Virus genome (UHGV): UHGV-2123520 | Source: a virus | Strand: one strand, 5' to 3' | Length of the DNA stretch: 20,525 nucleotides | Part shown: positions 894 through 13,789 of the stretch, one piece after another | Position numbering within the stretch: position 1 is the stretch's first letter | How the letters are laid out: each line of letters opens with the position of its first letter | The notes under the pieces: generated by a model | What the model was told of the DNA's origin: nothing | The model's input: the letters and a program-made list of their open reading frames with translations, nothing else | The model's database searches: none | Made by a program: the position numbers and the translations under genes

Positions 894-1590
894 TCTCCTG
901 CTGCGGTGCTGCTGCGAGCATAGCTCTATACGTCGGGTTAATTGCATCATGTTCGTTCATTGCGTCCCAGCCAGCTTTATTCATCGCTGCTGTAGGTTCT
1001 TTCGGAACCAATTGCCAACCATCCGGAGTTACCGGAGAGTTGCCAGCCTGAAGCATGGCGGCGCGGCAGGCGTTAAATCCATAGATATACGCCCCCTCTT
1101 TCGTCAGTGCTTTGACGTACGCAGGTGCTTCTTTGCATTCCTCCGGCACCACCGGCGCTCTCGGTCTGCCCTGCCTATCTGACGGCGCTAACGGAGCGTT
1201 AGTCAGTGCAGAGGCCAGCATTTCAATATCCGGCTGGGCTGGCTTCGGCAACATCGCTTTAATTGCTTCGATACCTGCATCATGTTCGGCTCGCTGTTCC
1301 GGCGTCATGGCTTCCAGTTCAGCGTAATAGTCAGCACGGCGTCGCAATGCGTCCAGTACGCACTGAGTGCGCACACCTTTGCCGAATTTAAGACCCGTCT
1401 CAAGATGCACTGGACATGGTAGAGTCGACGGAATGGATAGCACCCCATCAATCACCTTCACAGCATCAGCAATTGCGTATCCGAGATTGCCGCCGTCGCT
1501 TTGTGCTGATGCTTTGCTGAGTATTTCGCGTATCTGGTGCAGGCGATCGAGTGATACAGGACCGTGCGCCGGGTGGTTGTTAGTTGTCAT
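886..1590 (-). CDS. Hypothetical prophage early protein
   Basis: 235-aa ORF in the coupled leftward operon; start at ATG 1590 forms an ATGA overlap with the stop of the upstream gene; no recognisable motif. Confidence 0.5.
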   Translation of the reverse strand: MTTNNHPAHGPVSLDRLHQIREILSKASAQSDGGNLGYAIADAVKVIDGVLSIPSTLPCPVHLETGLKFGKGVRTQCVLDALRRRADYYAELEAMTPEQRAEHDAGIEAIKAMLPKPAQPDIEMLASALTNAPLAPSDRQGRPRAPVVPEECKEAPAYVKALTKEGAYIYGFNACRAAMLQAGNSPVTPDGWQLVPKEPTAAMNKAGWDAMNEHDAINPTYRAMLAAAPQQENV

Positions 1591-1913
1591 GCTGCCCATC
1601 CTCTGCGTTGATGGCCCAGCGCGTAACGCGCTTCTATCGGGTCTTCTTCTTCGTATTCACAATTGACGCTTTTAACCATTGCCACACAGCACTCGTTGCA
1701 GCACCGATATGACATGAGTTCGCCGTCGAATTTCCACGTCGTACTACGATGGCTTTCACCCTTTAAAATTTCGCCAGCGCAAATGTGACATTTGTATTCA
1801 CCGCGAGAGGTAACAATTTTGTTCGATAGTTCGGTATCGCATGGCGTACCGAAATCACCTTCAAAAAGGTCAAAGTCCAGTGCGTCGTCTAAATCCTGTT
1901 TGTTAGTTGTCAT
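1587..1913 (-). CDS. Cys-rich hypothetical protein (possible zinc-binding)
   Basis: 108-aa ORF with clustered cysteines (CHIC, CCNECC); stop overlaps next gene start. Confidence 0.5.
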   Translation of the reverse strand: MTTNKQDLDDALDFDLFEGDFGTPCDTELSNKIVTSRGEYKCHICAGEILKGESHRSTTWKFDGELMSYRCCNECCVAMVKSVNCEYEEEDPIEARYALGHQRRGWAA

Positions 1914-2287
1914 GCCGTAGCCCCTTCTTGATACTGCTCAAACCAGAACACAACTGGCGCGTTAGTCTGTTTAACCAGGCCAAATGATTCCGCTGTGCGG
2001 TAACTTCTTGACGCACGGCGAGTTACATCAACCTGAGTGGCTATGCGGCTGCGAAAGTCTTCTACTGTGCTGCACATTTTGAACAAGTTACATGGAATGC
2101 ATGCTGGAACCATGTTGCTGACCGTGTCATTTTCTGGCCTGTCCATTGCGTAGCCGTTGCTGATATTTCTTCGTACCGCTTCTACATGGTCTGCATGCCA
2201 TTTTTCGCCAAGTTCGCAGCCACAATAAGCACAGCGACCACCGAATTTCATACGCAGCTCTGCGCGTTGTTTCTTCGTGAGTGCCAT
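1910..2287 (-). CDS. HNH endonuclease
   Basis: CAYCGC ... HADHVEAV ... ACIPCN: C-x2-C, H-x-D-H, C-x2-C spacing characteristic of the HNH (His-Me finger) nuclease fold. Confidence 0.7.
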   Translation of the reverse strand: MALTKKQRAELRMKFGGRCAYCGCELGEKWHADHVEAVRRNISNGYAMDRPENDTVSNMVPACIPCNLFKMCSTVEDFRSRIATQVDVTRRASRSYRTAESFGLVKQTNAPVVFWFEQYQEGATA

Positions 2288-2288
2288 G

Positions 2289-2600
2289 TCATTTCCCTTT
2301 CTCTTTCAGCAGTGACGCCCTAGTTTCTGGAGAGGGATGTCGGTAATTAAGCAACTCCTCTGGCATCTTCATCATTTTGCCTTCCCCGGTAAGGGCTTGA
2401 ACGCGGCAACCCTTCACCCCAAATGCTGACGTATTAATGGTTTCGTCGTATTGGTTTAGCAGTTCAGCCATCTTCTCTTGCCATTCCTTCGGCATTTGCA
2501 TCATTGCTACGCGAGGCATCACCAGAAACGCTGCATAGGAAAGGCCGAACCAAAGGTGCAAATCTTTACGGTCGTCATAGTCTTCGTGTTTCATACTCAC
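2289..2600 (-). CDS. Hypothetical prophage early protein
   Basis: 103-aa ORF; 1-nt gap to downstream gene and 4-nt overlap with upstream gene; no recognised motif. Confidence 0.5.
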   Translation of the reverse strand: MSMKHEDYDDRKDLHLWFGLSYAAFLVMPRVAMMQMPKEWQEKMAELLNQYDETINTSAFGVKGCRVQALTGEGKMMKMPEELLNYRHPSPETRASLLKEKGK

Positions 2601-3178
2601 TCCCCCTTCACGCCAATGCCAGCGTCTTCTATCGACTTAATTACCGCGCTACGATACGTTTCTTCACGAAATACAATACGATTATTAAAACTCAACCAGA
2701 ATTCATCGTTAGATATCCTTGGAACGCATACCTTTCGTGCTTCCAGTTCAACAATCCGCTGGCGTAATGCTGCTATTTCCATCTCGGCGGCGTCAGCGTA
2801 GTGAACGTTTTCATGTTCAAGTGGTGGTAAATCCGGCGCAGTGACGCCAAACAATTTCGCCAGCGCGCGATAATTAAGCTCGCCGTGATAGCGCCCTTTG
2901 CAGCGAACCAGTTTCTCAGCAGCAGTAACAATCGCGATTTGTTCTGCTATGCGCCTCTCTGCGGCTTCCAGCTCATCCAGCAGCGCCAGCACGGTGGCGG
3001 GGTTAGCGGCGGCGATGAATGCTGCATCGCGCGTTTCATTTTCACTGAATACCATGGCTATTTGCTCATTATTCACGCCATTAGTGGAGTAAACCTCATC
3101 GTCGAACTCAACGACCCACTGACCTTGAGTTGCCTTCTCCGCCGCTTCACGCAGCGCCTGTTTGTTGAGTGCTGTCAT
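2597..3178 (-). CDS. Ead/Ea22-like protein
   Basis: N-terminus MTALNKQALREAAEKATQG and ANPATVLALLDELEAAERR match the recalled signature of Ea22-like early proteins of lambdoid prophages; not verified by search. Confidence 0.55.
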   Translation of the reverse strand: MTALNKQALREAAEKATQGQWVVEFDDEVYSTNGVNNEQIAMVFSENETRDAAFIAAANPATVLALLDELEAAERRIAEQIAIVTAAEKLVRCKGRYHGELNYRALAKLFGVTAPDLPPLEHENVHYADAAEMEIAALRQRIVELEARKVCVPRISNDEFWLSFNNRIVFREETYRSAVIKSIEDAGIGVKGE

Positions 3179-4236: not shown

Positions 4237-5154
4237 TTATCGCTTGGCTTCGCCGCCGAGAGAGGTCGTTAATCCGTTAATGAGAGAGATAAGCTCGCCG
4301 GTCATTAGAACAAAGTCAGCGTCGAACCGCTGAGCCGCATCCTCACGGTCGATATCGTCGTTTTGTTCAGTAATCTCATTAGAGAACTTAAGGCGTTTGA
4401 TGCTGCCGTCATCGCAAAGAACGAACTGAATGCGCTGTTGCCAGTCGATAGACAGCTTTGTAACTACTTTGCCAGCTTCCAGATGCACATGAATTTCGTC
4501 ACTGACCAGAGTCTGTTTTTTAAAGCGTCCAATACCGCCATCTTCAAGAATAGCTTTCAGCTCGGCTTCATCACCCAGGCCAAAGCCAGCAGGCGCACTA
4601 CCGGAACGAACCCATTCGGTCATAGTTAGTTCGATCGGCGTTTCCATAGTCAGCGGTACCACCGGGAGAGAACCGAGAGTTTTACGAAGCAGGGCCAGTG
4701 AGTCTTCGGCACGTTTAGCGCTGGCTGCATCAACCATGATCAGACCGTCGGTGACGTTGATCCACAAACTAACAGTCGAGTTTTTGGAGAACGCCCGAGG
4801 AAGCAGGGAGTGCAACACTTCATCACGCAGCGAATCTTTCTCAGTTTTTTTGAGGCGACGCCCCTGATCGGATTCCAGACGCGACACACGCTTGCGCAGT
4901 TCTTCAGCAATGACAGGAGATGGCAGTATTTTTTCTTCCCGGCGAATAACCAACAACACTTGATTATTGACAGTGTGATGCAAGCGATCTGACAGCTGAC
5001 CAAGTGGTGATACCCAACCGGTTTTTGCCATATCCTGGCTACCGCATGGAGTGAAGCGAAATAGTTCAAGCTGCTGTTCCAGCTCTTCCTGGTTGATGGT
5101 GAAATCGCGACTAAGGCGATACACCAACATATTTTTGAAAAACGGATTGTTCAT
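4237..5154 (-). CDS. rdgC: Recombination-associated protein RdgC homologue
   Basis: Full-length colinear similarity to E. coli RdgC as recalled ([69 protein letters not shown]); GAGGAA RBS 6 nt upstream. Confidence 0.8.
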
Positions 5155-5827
5155 TCTCGGTTCCTCAACGCCTCTGCACCGGCGCTAAAAAGTTAGTTTC
5201 TCCATACACAACAGAGAAGGGCACCTGCATTGGTCGGCGGCTTGCAGAGACCGCTTTCTTTTTGCCCGGGTGGATTGGGTTATGAGCCCGTCGCCCGGTG
5301 ATGCCCTTTTCTGTTGCGTAAAAAGGGCGGTACCGAGGTAGAACATTATCTTCGGCCCCCTTGCATAAGGTTGAAGACCCTGGTACCGCCAAGACTACAC
5401 ACAGCAATACTGGAACTACGGTTATCACGGTCCTAAGCGTGATTTGGTTGTGGTGGCCGGTGCTGCGATATTCCGGCATGGGTTGATTACCAGTGACGCA
5501 CCCTTTCGGGACACTCCCTCACGGTTTAGCGCATCAGCCTGCGCATTCACCACAACGAAGAGAGCACTGCCGGTGTCCGAATTGAACGGACCTTTTCGTT
5601 GCCCATCACCGCCATCTGTATAGCGGTGGCAGGGATTGAACCTGCCGTTATGCCTTGCTCGTCAATGCTCTCGTCGTTGCGCCCTGAAAAAGGCTGGCGG
5701 TTACCGGACAAGTGGGAAAACACCGGGCCGCCAGAACAGGGAGTTACTTGTTATTGCTTTGGCCTGCTTTTAACCACATCAGGCGCGGTGGTATCTTGGT
5801 GTTCTCACACAACCAAGAGGGATGTTT

Positions 5828-6025
5828 ATGGGCGCTTTTGATAACCAGGAAATTACGTTACCCGCATGCCCTAAGTGCGGCGCTAAGACGAAGAAGAAAA
5901 TCGCTTGGCTCAAGTCGAACAAAAGTTTCACTTGTCGATGTGGAGCCACTATCAATGTCAACAGCAGCCAGCTTACTTCCGAAATCAGGAAGGTTGAGGA
6001 CAAGCTGAAGAAGCTCTTTAAATAG
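5828..6025 (+). CDS. Small zinc-ribbon protein (65 aa), function unknown
   Basis: CPKCG...x18...CRCG motif and a lysine-rich C-terminus; AAGAGGG RBS 6-7 nt before ATG 5828 (the ORF-track ATG at 5822 abuts the RBS); followed by a plus-strand hairpin plus T-run at 6053-6085. Overlaps an antiparallel ORF, so only one may be real. Confidence 0.45.
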   Translation: MGAFDNQEITLPACPKCGAKTKKKIAWLKSNKSFTCRCGATINVNSSQLTSEIRKVEDKLKKLFK

Positions 6026-6223
6026 TTTTTTATCGACTGATATTATTTCGTTATCAGGGGTTGGTTTTTCAGCCTCTGATTTTTTAGTCAGGATCATTTT
6101 TTCTACACATGTGACTACGCATTCCGAACAGATAGCAGGTTCGTCCTTACCACCTTTTGCGACGATCTTCATCGCTACCAGTTCGGTTGCTCCACAAAAT
6201 GAGCATGTGAATAAATGATTCAT
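5858..6223 (-). CDS. ORF with N-terminal ClpX-type C4 zinc finger (121 aa), function unknown
   Basis: CSFCG-x21-CSECVVTC resembles the ClpX N-terminal zinc-binding domain; GAGGT RBS 4 nt before ATG 6223; it is the first ORF downstream of the OL/pL-like region. The C-terminal half is antisense to the 5828-6025 ORF and contains the plus-strand terminator hairpin, so its true extent is uncertain. Confidence 0.35.
   Translation of the reverse strand: MNHLFTCSFCGATELVAMKIVAKGGKDEPAICSECVVTCVEKMILTKKSEAEKPTPDNEIISVDKKLFKELLQLVLNLPDFGSKLAAVDIDSGSTSTSETFVRLEPSDFLLRLSAALRACG
6053..6085 (+). terminator. Putative rho-independent terminator after the small zinc-ribbon ORF
   Basis: atcagggg (6053-6060) pairs with cctctgat (6073-6080) with one G-U pair, 12-nt loop, followed by ttttt (6081-6085). 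Confidence 0.4.
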
Positions 6224-6347
6224 GTAAACCTCTGCCCCTAACCTTAGTTTTCTGTCAGCGAATCATCCGGTCATTCATACGCCACCGGCGGCTACTTCGT
6301 GGGCGTCCTGCCTGTTCGCTGTTGATGTGAATAACGATAAATCTAAA

Positions 6348-6387
6348 TTGCGTATTGCGCAAGTAATAAATTGCGTAAAATGCAATT
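6348..6387. promoter_or_regulatory. OL-like operator cluster and probable leftward early promoter
   Basis: ttgcgtattgcgcaa (6348-6362) and the dyad aattgc-N7-gcaatt (6369-6387) share the TTGCG...CGCAA motif seen at OR; the region lies just downstream of the cI terminator, as OL/pL does in lambda. Confidence 0.5.
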
Positions 6388-6396
6388 GTCATGGCG

Positions 6397-6420
6397 AAAA
6401 AAAACCGCCTGACTGGCGGT
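6397..6420 (-). terminator. Rho-independent terminator downstream of the repressor gene
   Basis: On the minus strand: stem accgcc / ggcggt with a 5-nt loop followed by eight T; 20 nt beyond the cI stop at 6440. Confidence 0.6.
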
Positions 6421-6439
6421 TTCTGAAAGGATATATAGA

Positions 6440-7132
6440 CTAGGCGTGGCGTTTAAATGACTGAGATTGGCTTATCATTACTTTCCCGTAGACATAAAAA
6501 CGATGCTCATTCGATTTATCGACAGACCACTCTCGATATTTTGGGTTATCTGATATTACTAGCAATTGGTCTGGTATCATCTGCAAACGCTTAACATATA
6601 TTTTGTCATCAAAACCAAATACATATATACCATCGCCGTCGAATTCATGTATTGAAATATCAACGAAAATCAGGTCGCCAGGCTCAATAGTCTCTGCCAT
6701 GCTATCGCCACGAACGTTGATTACCTTCACTTGCTCAGCTGCCCGACCACCGAACATGGATAAAGCACGCTCGTTGTTGTATTCGATGGATCTGATGACA
6801 TCTATAACGTCGCTACCTTGAATAAAGCCTCCGCCAGCGCTAGCGCTAACATCAAGAATTTCCACTCTAAACACCGAGTCATCTCCAATATGTGGGGCTG
6901 TTACACTGTTTTTATATACAGTAGTTGCATTTCCACTAGGAGTAAATAGCTCAGCGACACTAACGCCTAAAGCTTCAGCATATTTACTAAGTGATTGTTC
7001 AGTAAATGACTTCTGCTTGCCGGTTTCAAGGCGAGAGATATTTGCGCCGTCGACACCGACAGCCTCTGCAAGATCAGCGATTTTCAGGCCCTTCGCAGTG
7101 CGAAGTTCTCTTATGCGGTTTCCAATATTCAT
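6440..7132 (-). CDS. CI-like phage repressor (XRE HTH plus S24 LexA-type peptidase domain)
   Basis: N-terminal HTH (IRELRTAKGLKIADLAEAVGVDGANISRLETGK), C-terminal RGDSM serine motif and downstream KR typical of autocleaving S24 repressors. Start placed at ATG 7132 (MNIGNRIRELR); the ORF track extends to 7195 through implausible N-terminal sequence. Confidence 0.8.
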   Translation of the reverse strand: MNIGNRIRELRTAKGLKIADLAEAVGVDGANISRLETGKQKSFTEQSLSKYAEALGVSVAELFTPSGNATTVYKNSVTAPHIGDDSVFRVEILDVSASAGGGFIQGSDVIDVIRSIEYNNERALSMFGGRAAEQVKVINVRGDSMAETIEPGDLIFVDISIHEFDGDGIYVFGFDDKIYVKRLQMIPDQLLVISDNPKYREWSVDKSNEHRFYVYGKVMISQSQSFKRHA

Positions 7133-7152
7133 GCGCCTATTACATGTTGTTT

Positions 7153-7216
7153 TTGCGTGATGTGCAAAGCAACTTGCGCAAGTCGTATGTTCCAATTAAT
7201 ATGCGTATTACGCAAT
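7153..7216. promoter_or_regulatory. OR-like operator cluster with divergent promoters between cI and cro
   Basis: Three dyads in the 97-bp intergenic region: ttgcgtgatgtgcaa (7153-7167), perfect 12-bp palindrome acttgcgcaagt (7172-7183), and tgcgta-t-tacgca within 7201-7216. Confidence 0.55.
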
Positions 7217-7229
7217 TAAAGGAGGGTAT

Positions 7230-7475
7230 ATGCAATCACCGTTACGAATCTTGCGTAAATCGCAAGGTATGACTCTTTCATATGTCGCAAAAGGTGTCGA
7301 TATCGACCCGGGAAATCTAAGTCGGATAGAGCGAGGACAGCAAATTGCTTCCCTGGATATAGCTGAGCGACTAGTCAGCTTCTTTTCAGGAAAAATCAAT
7401 GAGCTAGAAATTCTTTACCCGCATCGATATTCGAACTGTACAGGTGCGAATACAGATACAAAACCACAGAACTAA
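7230..7475 (+). CDS. Cro-like XRE-family HTH regulator
   Basis: 81-aa ORF divergent from cI; HTH LSYVAKGVDIDPGNLSRIERGQ; AGGAGGG RBS 3 nt upstream of ATG. Confidence 0.7.
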   Translation: MQSPLRILRKSQGMTLSYVAKGVDIDPGNLSRIERGQQIASLDIAERLVSFFSGKINELEILYPHRYSNCTGANTDTKPQN

Positions 7476-13207: not shown

Positions 13208-13300
13208 AGTAAATTTCACTATCTCCTTCAAACACGCTTGCAAAATGCAACAAAATAAGCCATATTTAAAGCATATTTGATATGTTGCCAAAGTTTTATA

Positions 13301-13327
13301 AACCCGCCGATGAGCGGGTTTTTTTAT
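13301..13327 (+). terminator. tR'-like rho-independent terminator downstream of Q-like gene
   Basis: aacccgc cgatga gcgggtt followed by tttttat. Confidence 0.6.
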
Positions 13328-13447
13328 GGCAAATCAGCCATGCACGGCGCATAAAGGCGCTGGCGGTCGCAGAATGGAATTCTTCTCTTGCTGGTATCAC
13401 CAACCAGAGTTATCTGTATGTCACGCAACTAATTTTAGGTAAAAGAC

Positions 13448-13639
13448 ATGCTAAATCAGGAAGATATGACAGAAACGGCAAAGGCTGTTTTCAATGAATT
13501 AAGCGATAAACCAGCAACGGCTGGGGAGATTGCACAGAATACCCACCTCAGCCGCGAACGTTGCCAGCTCATACTTACGCAGCTGGTGATGGCGGGTTTA
13601 TCTGATTACCAGTTTGGATGTTATAAACGCCTCCAGTAA
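13448..13639 (+). CDS. Small winged-helix protein (PapI/FaeA-like by recalled similarity)
   Basis: 63-aa ORF; TAGEIAQNTHLSRERCQLILTQLVMAGL resembles the recognition helix region of PapI/FaeA-type regulators; first ORF after the tR'-like terminator. Confidence 0.35.
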   Translation: MLNQEDMTETAKAVFNELSDKPATAGEIAQNTHLSRERCQLILTQLVMAGLSDYQFGCYKRLQ

Positions 13640-13789
13640 TGGGGGCTTTCTGCTGTGGAAATGGGCGGCTGGTGGGTGTTAGCGCACCCGGCCAGCCATC
13701 AGCTCATGCTTTCAGGTCACAAGCTAACCAAGGCCCACTGCTTTAGCGCAAAAGCAACGTGAGCCTATCAGAGTTACGCTTACTGATCT

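Follow-up and report, generated by a model that had tools for sequence, protein, structure and literature searches.

What does a 0.7 kb stretch of a phage operon do if no credible gene lies in it? In the UHGV virus genome UHGV-2123520, of which a stretch of 20,525 nt was analysed (the window), the interval 5155-5857 is flanked by rdgC on one side and by an ORF for a ClpX-type zinc finger on the other, and a preliminary description had taken it for hairpin-dense non-coding sequence. We find that it belongs to the early-left operon of a lambda-like prophage and is made up of a series of non-coding RNA modules, each folded and conserved. Its elements and neighbours are listed below in the direction of minus-strand transcription.

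6363-6392, minus: putative PL promoter, read by eye (ATGACA, 17-18 nt spacer, TTATTA/TATTAC)
5858-6223, minus: ClpX-type zinc-finger ORF (Pfam zf-C4_ClpX, 28.6 bits)
5733-5857, minus: 3' untranslated tail that follows the zinc-finger ORF and contains small hairpins at 5797-5823 and 5772-5793
5686-5732, minus: T1, terminator-like hairpin (CUGGCGG..CCGG / CCGG..CCGCCAG at 5696-5732), followed by CCUUUUUC (about 5685-5692)
5548-5680, minus: module C, a 133-nt four-helix RNA supported by covariation and fold
5660-5680 with 5552-5572, minus: P1, closing stem of module C, about 20 bp
5628-5646, minus: P2, T-arm mimic of module C (GGCAGG UUCAAUC CCUGCC)
5608-5627, minus: P3, variable hairpin of module C, at the acceptor-stem position after the first T-arm
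5575-5591, minus: P4, second T-arm mimic of module C (GUCCG UUCAAUU CGGAC)
5529-5544, minus: small hairpin (GCGCA GGCUGA UGCGC) directly 3' of module C, kept in several homologues
5320-5445, minus: module B, in which a terminator hairpin resembling DicF comes after a first hairpin
5424-5443, minus: hairpin of module B (AUCACG CUUAGGAC CGUGAU), also present in Salmonella phage SPC32H just after tRNA-Arg
5320-5404, minus: 3' part of module B, a DicF-like sRNA candidate and terminator (T2), with a sub-threshold match to Rfam DicF
5209-5316, minus: module A, a three-way junction
5300-5316 with 5209-5225, minus: P1', closing stem of module A, 17 bp
5294-5298 (CCGGG) with 5266-5270 (CCCGG), minus: P2' outer stem of module A
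5277-5289, minus: P2' inner stem and loop of module A (GGG CUCAUAA CCC), matching the initiator-tRNA anticodon stem-loop
5237-5254, minus: P3', variable hairpin of module A
5195-5208, minus: conserved box GGAGAAACUAAC after module A, with the look of a ribosome-binding site
4237-5154, minus: rdgC (Pfam RdgC, 387 bits)

Coding content and strand of the interval

ORFs of 80-104 aa can be drawn across the interval, and homologous stretches are labelled 'hypothetical protein' in some GenBank records, but that a gene for a protein lies hidden or decayed here is hardly credible. The ORFs concerned (5165-5479 minus, 5599-5841 plus and 5712-6008 plus) have no Pfam match. In 126 related loci, the ORFs over this stretch share neither frame nor strand, or else they extend the true next gene upstream by read-through. 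Homologous copies are separated by indels of 1, 3, 4 and 23-27 nt, with those of 1, 4 and 23-27 nt falling inside conserved blocks, and substitutions are paired across helices. The preliminary description had read the coding content correctly; the intact conserved ORF that it named as the sign of a decayed gene is not what the 126 loci show.

The minus strand of the interval (706 nt) folds with a z-score of -6.55, and the four hairpins that had been picked out by eye are all real, corresponding to P2 (5628-5646), P3 (5607-5628), P4 (5575-5591) and T1 (5696-5732). That these should be read on the minus strand is borne out by module C, whose covariance model scores 175.7 bits on that strand and 18.7 bits on the other, and whose fold has a z-score of -4.74 on the minus strand as against -2.6 on the plus strand. 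The adjoining recombination gene rdgC, together with a module A that folds equally well on either strand, could suggest an element acting as DNA, either as single-stranded hairpins in replication, recombination or packaging or as protein-binding repeats; but the many G.U pairs of the RNA would be A.C mismatches on the opposite strand, the covariance model separates the strands by 176 to 19 bits, and the element without exception points the same way as the early-left transcript and adjoining tRNAs, which makes a DNA-level role very improbable. An integron attC site was rejected because the CAAC/GUUG ends fit RYYYAAC/GTTRRRY only partly and the G.U evidence favours RNA.

The strand also bears on the comparison with lambda nut sites. 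The boxB-like sequence (5681-5694) lies on the non-transcribed plus strand, its minus-strand equivalent being the U-tract after T1; the boxA likeness is likewise a plus-strand feature. A scan of 20 ORFs gave no N-like Pfam match, and none of them was recognised as an N gene. The nut reading is not supported.

Architecture and conservation of the modules

Module C was aligned over 72 distinct phage copies. P1 is 98.8% paired with seven doubly changed pairs, and further doubly changed pairs occur in P2 (four), P3 (four) and P4 (one), G.U pairs being frequent; the covariation score is 0.247, as opposed to 0.113 for shuffled alignments (none of 500 shuffles as high) and 0.06-0.08 when the pairing is slid. 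The unpaired runs ACGAGCAAGGCAUAA and UGGGCA..GAAAAG are invariant. Both P2 and P4 have the 5-bp stem, 7-nt UUCRANY loop and G53-C61-type closing pair of a tRNA T-arm, and in their loops only the R and Y positions vary across the 72 copies, while the stems covary. The whole 20.5 kb window has just two occurrences of GTTCRATYC, and these lie on the minus strand within module C. The likeness to T-arms noticed at the outset is genuine and applies to two near-invariant loops within one RNA.

The accompanying remark that acceptor and anticodon partners are lacking was right in that there is no cloverleaf, but a variable hairpin occupies the acceptor place and an initiator anticodon-type stem-loop is found in module A, its CUCAUAA loop (5280-5286) having gone unmentioned. 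Searched at E up to 10, the stretch 5000-6300, module C included, had no match to the Rfam tRNA model (RF00005), while as a positive control it scored tRNA-like genes of two related loci, L045 and L015, at 45.9 and 39.9 bits, respectively; ARAGORN reported neither a tRNA nor a tmRNA in the window. The covariance model finds module C once in the window, and a scan for cassettes returned modules C and A only. A hammerhead ribozyme was considered on account of UGACGAG and GAAA core-like elements and rejected upon inspection of the alignment, in which the flanking pairs needed for stems II and III vary.

In module A, one hairpin presents a CAU loop on three G-C pairs, as the anticodon arm of initiator tRNA does, with a 14-nt identity, CGGGCUCAUAACCC, to the anticodon stem-loop of E. 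coli metY. Over 42 distinct copies, P1' is 94% paired with four doubly changed pairs, and the covariation score is 0.127 compared with 0.069 after shuffling (0 of 500 shuffles as high). The compensatory changes in the stems of both modules, above the level of shuffled alignments, bear out the earlier proposal of a conserved structured RNA. Position 37 of the 'anticodon' loop is A or U, unlike in real tRNAs. The box GGAGAAACUAAC that follows precedes the ATG of the first gene in L045; in the window, no start codon lies at the right spacing.

The hairpin T1 (fold -18.5 kcal/mol, z = -3.35) closely follows the zinc-finger ORF and abuts module C on its 5' side, and this 5' flank is kept within the window's sub-family of module C copies; the motif CCUGAUGUGGUUAAAAGCAGGC of the untranslated tail is seen again at other loci, where it flanks cassettes on their 5' side. 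T2 consists of a conserved single strand, UGCUGUGUGUAGUCUU, a stem formed by GGCGGUACC (5382-5390) and GGUACCGCC (5326-5334) that encloses a 47-nt insert, and CUUUUU (5320-5325). A DicF-like hairpin of this kind, with a covarying stem and a conserved 5' single strand, is found in 75 of the 126 loci. Its scores with the Rfam DicF model (RF00039), namely 16.6 bits in the window, 33 in L015 and 17 in L045, are all below the gathering score of 48. The Rfam scan proposed in the preliminary description thus yielded no gathering-level match in the whole window, and only the weak DicF match when 5000-6300 was searched at E up to 10. Since modules C and A lie directly downstream of terminator-like hairpins, their expression requires read-through.

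Phages of Enterobacterales conserve module C, module A and the DicF-like hairpin independently of one another, with compensatory changes and G.U pairs keeping the helices of all three. The cassettes have closing stems with common CAAC.../...GUUG ends. The 5' half of module A is present in 2,521 of 5,426 complete E. coli genomes (46%), and module C in at least 120 viral contigs and eight further Enterobacterales species. Prophage ST64B has module A and T2 and lacks module C (a Salmonella prophage transcriptome paper holds no information on that spot), and a prophage of E. coli Nissle 1917 lacks the equivalent of 5317-5675, so that the tail of T1 is joined straight to the CAAC stem base of module A. 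Modules were absent from the region upstream of yfdP in K-12 CPS-53 and from the phi80 stretch retrieved (early-left and immunity region). Neither module A nor module C is included in Rfam 15 or annotated as an RNA gene in the records examined, where homologous stretches are blank or carry a 'hypothetical protein', and no description of the modules was found in literature on tRNA-like prophage RNAs, anticodon-nuclease decoys or the invariant string.

In related phages, the same modules directly follow the putative PL in arrays that reach about 1 kb, interleaved with tRNA-Arg(UCU) and anticodon-less tRNA-like genes; in L045 and L015, such tRNA-like genes adjoin module C. In Salmonella phage SPC32H, module C and tRNA-Arg form a block of their own on the minus strand, with the terminase gene on one side and the portal gene on the other, both on the opposite strand, and outside any immunity region. 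There, tRNA-Arg begins at the base after P1 of module C, the place taken in the window by the 5529-5544 hairpin. Many phages that have the modules are without the zinc-finger genes (for example Stx2a_1447, phiNP and SPC32H), which leaves the suggestion that the RNA is a partner of the adjacent zinc-finger proteins unsupported. Clustering of neighbouring genes in search of a protein partner returned only CI-like, CII-like, DUF2303, RdgC and YfdP-like genes, which are expected from the genome position and none of which is specific to the RNA.

Proposed transcription and processing of the array

The interval's transcript likely originates at the putative PL, which lies just after the cI terminator (6395-6422) and overlaps operator-like repeats (TTGCGCAA/TTACGCAA) found also between cI and cro. 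Consensus promoter scans flagged neither this promoter nor that of the SPC32H unit, and both are putative. The window's prophage has a Q gene. Both P1 (about 20 bp) and P1' (17 bp) offer the roughly two helical turns and closing element of an RNase III-type duplex.

A precedent comes from the ydfC-dicF spacer of the E. coli K-12 Qin prophage, in which a related long-stem cassette (locus L138, 2676-2757) lies upstream of dicF. The 190-nt DicF species of Qin is RNase III-dependent, and the cleavage affects the stability of the upstream mRNA (PMC10448788). This species starts at about position 2746 of L138, within the 3' strand of the closing stem. The Qin cassette is of a different type from modules C and A, both of which are absent from Qin, and BLAST found no significant similarity between Qin and the window.

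To our preferred reading we give nearly an even chance: the interval would encode an array of small RNAs processed by RNase III and RNase P, comprising tRNA mimics and one sRNA, that act in trans. It draws on the conserved structure and its strand, the separable conservation of the modules, their links to tRNA, the common closing stems and the likeness to DicF; against it stand the lack of a cloverleaf, the variable position 37, the need for read-through, the sub-threshold DicF scores, the negative promoter scans and the different type of the Qin cassette. PL would transcribe the array upon induction or infection; RNase III would cut the closing stems of 17-22 bp, as extrapolated from the different cassette type of Qin, and RNase P and RNase E would trim the ends where tRNAs or A/U-rich sites adjoin. 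Three products are predicted: a tRNA mimic of about 95-135 nt with two T-arms, an sRNA that would base-pair in the manner of DicF, and a mimic of the CAU anticodon arm. In trans, the mimics may engage tRNA-recognising host factors, either by decoying nucleases that cleave tRNA or by serving as ligands of tRNA-binding enzymes, and the DicF-like sRNA may target host mRNAs, while T1, T2 and the cleavages would meter how much of the transcript extends into rdgC and further genes. The SPC32H unit, encoded on the strand opposite to its flanking genes and outside any immunity region, makes action in trans plausible. The earlier ideas of a processing RNA and of a phage-encoded small RNA are both compatible with the evidence.

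Somewhat unlikely, on balance, is a purely cis role, whereby RNase III cuts the long stems and transcription is attenuated at T1 and T2, which together set the stability and dosage of early-left mRNA, and the ornate tops of the cassettes merely tune cleavage or folding and do nothing in trans. RNase III sites of this kind are known from the lambda N leader, sib, T7 early RNA and the Qin dicBF transcript. The location of the cassettes in the PL leader and between genes, their closing stems of 17-22 bp, the terminator-like hairpin that precedes every one of them, and the Qin precedent of a cut in such a stem that influences upstream mRNA all fit such a role. However, both T-loops and the unpaired nucleotides are invariant or nearly so in 72 copies while the stems drift, which is more constraint than a cleavage site requires; the matches to T-arms and to the initiator anticodon arm are left unexplained; and the SPC32H unit, fused to a tRNA on the minus strand, is not part of any early operon. 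The cassettes might instead be remains of a phage tRNA cluster or small mobile hairpins recombining at their CAAC/GUUG ends, decaying or selfish and without present function. We hold this quite improbable: compensatory substitutions keep the helices, and the loops are invariant, in phages of several Enterobacterales families, and module A is kept in 46% of complete E. coli genomes. In its favour are the interleaving of the cassettes with real and degenerate tRNAs, their common boundary sequences, one deletion running exactly from boundary to boundary, and their patchy presence among phages.

The modules could also be processive antiterminators in cis that, like HK022 put (which works through the zinc-binding domain of RNA polymerase beta-prime) or Bacillus EAR, bind RNA polymerase and carry it through T1, T2 and later terminators without N. 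This would suit a phage that has Q but no recognised N gene in the ORFs scanned, a structured PL leader with embedded terminator-like hairpins, and the ORF that lies in SPC32H downstream of two terminators of the module C/tRNA-Arg unit. It is nevertheless improbable. The put RNA is about 70 nt long, has two stems, starts at the start of the PL transcript and has a putR twin (PMC9378689), whereas module C is a single copy of 133 nt built of four helices, which comes after T1 and is separated by more than 600 nt from the putative PL; the Nissle 1917 prophage keeps T1 and a module A devoid of T2 in the absence of module C, and tRNA mimicry is given no role. The put-like element envisaged in the preliminary description is not supported, put and module C differing in size, helix number, place and copy number.

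Within the reading of a trans-acting array, a narrower proposal is that the tRNA mimics are decoys or inhibitors of tRNA-recognising factors of host or prophage, in an RNA-based form of counter-defence or host takeover. Drawn from resemblance and from the known existence of defences that target tRNA, this idea is speculative and, as it stands, unlikely; candidate targets would be tRNA-cleaving defence nucleases or toxins and the machineries of tRNA modification or translation initiation. Phages are so far known to counter tRNA-cleaving defences by encoding replacement tRNAs, and functional mimicry would add a layer of RNA decoys to this conflict. If the proposal is true, E. coli prophages very commonly carry a counter-defence or takeover system that has so far been unannotated. 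Defining the modules would correct early-left annotation in thousands of prophages, including Stx-converting phages and a prophage of Nissle 1917, and offers a testable handle on how the early-left transcript is organised and processed in lambda-like phages without a recognisable N gene.

Comparison with known systems

Among known RNAs, the bacterial Y RNA YrlA, a permuted tRNA mimic, partly resembles module C in its order of a long 5'/3' stem, a T stem-loop, a sequence-variable stem-loop at the acceptor place and a second conserved stem-loop before the return to the stem, and YrlA-like RNAs occur in phages too (PMC4201824). The two differ in that the place of the YrlA D-arm is occupied in module C by the second T-arm-like hairpin, and that the GNCGAAN0-1G motif is absent, the nearest sequence being GACGAGC. 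No Y RNA-type family was matched in Rfam at E up to 10, and no Ro60/TROVE gene was found among the neighbours scanned (YfbR-like, RdgC, zf-C4_ClpX and CI-like repressor, all outside 1587-3178). E. coli is not known to have Rsr.

HK022, a lambda-like phage without N protein, likewise has structured RNA, put, in its early leaders; put differs from module C in size and architecture, in its position at the transcript start and in being paired as putL and putR, no putR-like second copy being found in the window. Two other phage RNAs were set aside: the Pas sRNAs (bioRxiv 2026.05.13.724894) belong to the late Q-lysis region and are unrelated, and the M3 RNA of phi80, an RNase P substrate, is described as hairpin-like and without a T loop, the phi80 stretch itself having no modules.

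Small stable RNAs inside a phage tRNA cluster are known from T4 (species 1 and 2, or RNA C and D), and ROOL and GOLLD are large tRNA-associated phage RNAs. All of these are, like the window's modules, structured RNAs co-located and probably co-processed with phage tRNA genes. The modules share no sequence or covariance-model similarity with them, Rfam giving no match, and are smaller and separable; in most phages they reside in the PL leader, as opposed to a tRNA island. An anticodon arm is also mimicked by the thrS operator, an element of mRNA. Like this operator, module A copies the anticodon stem-loop of a specific tRNA, in its case the initiator; it differs in having no link to a cognate synthetase gene and in its phage-leader location, and is a candidate mimic known from sequence.

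A close parallel in layout is offered by the dicBF operon of Qin (ydfC-dicF-dicB), which likewise is expressed early, belongs to a lambda-like prophage, is controlled by a CI-like repressor and has several hundred nt of non-coding RNA between genes. There, a long-stem cassette with a CAAC.../...GUUGUGG base is cut by RNase III in the stem and followed by an sRNA hairpin of the type GGCGGUA...CCGCCC-UUUUU. The window's hairpin matches DicF in its early-operon position and in its GGCGG...CCGCC hairpin and U-run, with a score (16.6 bits) below the threshold of 48, and differs from it in the 5' single strand, which in the window is UGCUGUGUGUAGUCUU. This link to an operon of K-12 provides a ready experimental model.

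Coding status and setting of the interval 5155-5857

Because of its gene set, namely a CI-like repressor, cro, a CII-like gene and, rightward, replication genes, Dam, RusA, Q, lysis genes (holin, endolysin) and terminase, the window is assigned to a lambda-like prophage; scanning 20 of its ORFs revealed no recognisable N gene.

Genes around the interval
4237-5154, minus strand: rdgC (Pfam RdgC, 387 bits), one border of the interval
5858-6223, minus strand: ClpX-type zinc-finger ORF, 121 aa (zf-C4_ClpX, 28.6 bits), the other border
6440-7195, minus strand: CI-like LexA-family repressor, beyond the zinc-finger ORF
7230-7475, plus strand: cro, beyond the repressor, where the CII-like gene also lies

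As the preliminary description held, there is no believable coding sequence between these borders: the ORFs it distrusted have no Pfam match, ORFs over this stretch in 126 related loci lie in differing frames, on both strands or as read-through extensions upstream of the true next gene (encoding a 123-aa YfdP/Sb37-like protein), and indels of 1, 3, 4 and 23-27 nt distinguish homologous copies within conserved blocks. Its four hairpins all lie at the coordinates it gave, and the minus strand (706 nt) folds with z = -6.55 against shuffled sequence, confirming the observation of a hairpin-rich non-coding interval.

Within 6340-6425, a strong cI terminator (6395-6422) is followed by operator-like repeats TTGCGCAA/TTACGCAA, which recur between cI and cro (within 7196-7260); the early-left promoter PL is probably located at the former set, just past the terminator, and a consensus promoter scan flagged neither site. 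The start of the corresponding leader (6262-6335, minus strand) contains CAACAGCGAACAGG...UUCGCUGACAG, able to pair as a stem, is conserved in the related locus L043 and shares its first bases with the leader of another, L045; it may be a further structured element of the leader, ahead of the zinc-finger ORF. Antisense to the latter over 168 nt runs a plus-strand zinc-ribbon ORF (5822-6025, 67 aa, CPKCG...CRCG) with a sub-threshold Lar restriction-alleviation match (E = 0.002) and its own plus-strand terminator (6053-6080); both antisense zinc-ribbon ORFs are annotated in Edwardsiella phage EPP-1. Elsewhere in the window, about 580 nt between the Q antiterminator and DNA methylase genes (13208-13789) hold no ORF of at least 90 aa and nothing at Rfam gathering score; this is the likely site of the late promoter and terminator, a region that encodes small RNAs in other phages.

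Conserved modules of the minus strand

Downstream of the inferred PL, the early-left leader contains at least three modules that, judged from alignment and covariation, are conserved structured minus-strand RNAs.

Elements of the modules (all minus strand)
5548-5680: module C, with unpaired invariant runs ACGAGCAAGGCAUAA and UGGGCA..GAAAAG
P1 of module C: closing stem, about 20 bp
P2 of module C: GGCAGG UUCAAUC CCUGCC
P3 of module C: variable hairpin abutting P2
P4 of module C: GUCCG UUCAAUU CGGAC
5696-5732 plus CCUUUUUC: T1, terminator-like, directly 5' of module C (fold z = -3.35)
5320-5404: T2, the terminator-like hairpin of module B, GGCGGUACC...GGUACCGCC then CUUUUU, directly 5' of module A
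5209-5316: module A, with closing stem P1'

A pattern scan of viral contigs found module C at no fewer than 120 loci, from which 72 distinct 164-nt versions were aligned. By pair counting, P1 is 98.8% paired with 7 doubly changed pairs, and P2, P3 and P4 have 4, 4 and 1, respectively; the covariation score of 0.247, reached in 0/500 shuffles, compares with 0.113 for shuffled data and 0.06-0.08 for slid pairings. Alternation of A-U with G-U, or of U-G with C-G, at many positions makes module C consistent only with an RNA read from the minus strand; its covariance model gives 175.7 bits there and 18.7 bits for the plus strand. Both loops read G-UUCRAUY-C, the signature of a tRNA T-arm, found nowhere else in the 20.5 kb window. 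Neither ARAGORN nor the Rfam tRNA model detected module C, and a tRNA identity was rejected. In GTDB, sampled at one genome per species, it occurs in 8 further species, all Enterobacterales.

Module A, aligned from 42 distinct copies, is a three-way junction consisting of P1' (17 bp, 94% paired, 4 doubly changed pairs), an extended hairpin (CCGGG...CCCGG, with GGG-CUCAUAA-CCC at its tip) and a variable hairpin, with a covariation score of 0.127 against 0.069 shuffled (0/500) and 0.02-0.05 slid. Its CGGGCUCAUAACCC exactly matches the anticodon stem-loop of E. coli initiator tRNA metY; by estimate, both strands of 673 nt should yield about 3e-4 chance 14-mer matches to one given 77-nt tRNA. Almost all variants keep the CAU triplet and three G-C pairs, with loop position 37 being either A or U. 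Together, modules C and A show mimicry of the T-arm and of the initiator anticodon arm, and they share the base of the closing stem (CAAC.../...GUUGUG). Of 5426 complete E. coli genomes, 2521 carry the 5' half of module A, which, among the records listed, is unannotated, labelled 'hypothetical protein' or, in one case, rdgC. A conserved box, GGAGAAACUAAC (5195-5208, minus strand), lies 3' of module A in nearly all copies; the first gene of L045 has this box as its apparent ribosome-binding site (7243-7262), and in the window it precedes only a possible 6-codon mini-ORF (AUG GAG AAA CUA ACU UUU UAG).

T2 is the sole site with any Rfam match in a permissive scan of 5000-6300 (DicF, 16.6 bits); its homologues in the related loci L015 and L045 score 33 bits (E = 0.0014) and 17 bits, all three being below the DicF gathering score of 48. 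Found in 75/126 loci and almost always followed by 'AC' and a module-A-type stem, T2 has a covarying stem (GGCGGUACCAG, GGCGGUUAUCCA, GGCGGUGAUCGG, each with a matching partner) and a conserved single strand, UGCUGUGUGUAGUCUU, on its 5' side, a pattern that would be expected of a base-pairing sRNA.

Cassette arrays in other phages and the dicBF leader

BLAST against phage and E. coli collections found no full-length homologue of the interval, which resolves into two conserved blocks, about 5192-5334 (module A and the end of T2) and about 5525-5686 (module C), flanking a variable one (about 5335-5524). A prophage of E. coli Nissle 1917 lacks 5317-5675; in an alignment with the window, its T1 tail is joined directly to the module A stem base. 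A stretch of 0.8-1.1 kb is left unannotated in the same place, between repressor and first early-left gene, in Citrobacter phage phiNP, Stx2a-converting phages, EPP-1 and others. In Stx2a_1447, operator-like repeats after the cI terminator and a probable PL precede about 600 non-coding nt comprising a 5' domain, module C, a variable part, T2 and module A, then the first ORF; its isrK (67 bits) and C4 antisense RNA (83.6 bits) at L005 5636-5837 adjoin an antirepressor gene in the right operon and have no counterpart in the window.

The modules are physically interleaved with tRNA genes. Leaders of about 1 kb in L045 and L015 contain, in order, module C, a tRNA-like gene, a long-stem cassette, a genuine tRNA-Arg(UCU), T2 and a module-A-type cassette. 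Their tRNA-like genes (L045 6637-6760, Rfam tRNA 45.9 bits; L015 1116-1241, 39.9 bits), missed by ARAGORN, have normal acceptor, D and T arms, a tetraloop or 6-nt loop instead of the anticodon loop, and a variable-region insertion of about 56 nt with CAU-type loops. In the epsilon15-like Salmonella phage SPC32H, the 5' domain of Stx2a_1447 and module C occupy a minus-strand block between plus-strand terminase and portal genes, where tRNA-Arg begins at the base right after P1 and a T2-like terminator closes the unit; a promoter for this block, where a scan found none, is inferred from the strand arrangement only. Further cassette types in other loci likewise have CAAC...GUUG closing stems.

One type, with a stem containing GAAAGCGCA...UGCGCUUCC, has a member in the ydfC-dicF spacer of the E. 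coli K-12 Qin prophage (locus L138, 2676-2757). Earlier work, confirmed by Ragunathan et al. (PMC10448788), established that DicF derives by cleavage from the dicBF operon transcript: a 190-nt species is made by RNase III, and the 53-nt sRNA by RNase E. If the 190 nt are measured from the 3' end of DicF, the RNase III cut falls at about L138 2746, in the 3' strand of the cassette closing stem. This lends real, if indirect, support to the view that RNase III acts at P1 and P1', and marks the dicBF leader as the nearest relative of the interval among studied loci. BLAST found no extended similarity between Qin and the window. After dicF (L138 2940-2985), GUGGUGAAUGCGGCUGAGCGCA resembles GUGGUGAAUGCGCAGGCUGAUGCGC 3' of the window module C; the dicBF leader may be a rearranged relative of the cassette arrays.

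Possible functions and relation to known RNAs

The modules are very probably functional structured RNAs; their excision by RNase III and tRNA-processing enzymes is somewhat favoured, and action of their tops in trans as tRNA mimics is a tentative proposal. Upon induction, transcription would start from PL, RNase III would cleave the closing stems, RNase P or RNase E would trim where tRNAs adjoin, and the small RNAs released would act in trans; how much of rdgC and the genes beyond is expressed would be metered by T1, T2 and the cleavages. A decoy or ligand role would be plausible, as both mimicked arms are recognised by host factors and tRNA is a target of VapC and P2 Old. T-arms are recognised by TruB, TrmA, RNase P and EF-Tu, and three G-C pairs with a CAU anticodon by the ribosomal P site and MetRS; the initiator anticodon loop is cleaved by VapC-type toxins. 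In addition, prophage nucleases such as P2 Old cut tRNAs, disabling lambda-like phages, which phage-encoded tRNAs rescue (PMC12445682).

Purely cis-acting processing and attenuation elements are a possible alternative, at about one chance in four by our judgement. The put-like antiterminator raised in the preliminary description is unlikely, since the element differs from put in size, architecture, position and copy number. The boxB-like site of that description is the complement of the T1 U-tract. Decaying or selfish tRNA-derived cassettes are slightly less likely still. A role at the DNA level, against which G.U pairs and strand asymmetry argue, is very improbable, and a hidden gene scarcely credible.

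Put or nut identity was rejected for the window element, which stays below the DicF family threshold and has no Rfam match at gathering level, ROOL and GOLLD included. No prior description was found in Rfam 15 or the searched literature, which covers subscription journals little, so that earlier accounts are possible. We group the modules with the small RNAs and tRNA mimics that phages encode within operons and that are released by processing; notable are how widespread the modules are and how specific the mimicry is. Although a second T-arm-like hairpin takes the place of the D-arm, the Ro-binding motif is lacking and no Ro60 gene was found among the neighbouring ORFs scanned, the element partly resembles the YrlA Y RNAs in its overall order of stem, T arm, variable acceptor-like hairpin, conserved hairpin and stem.
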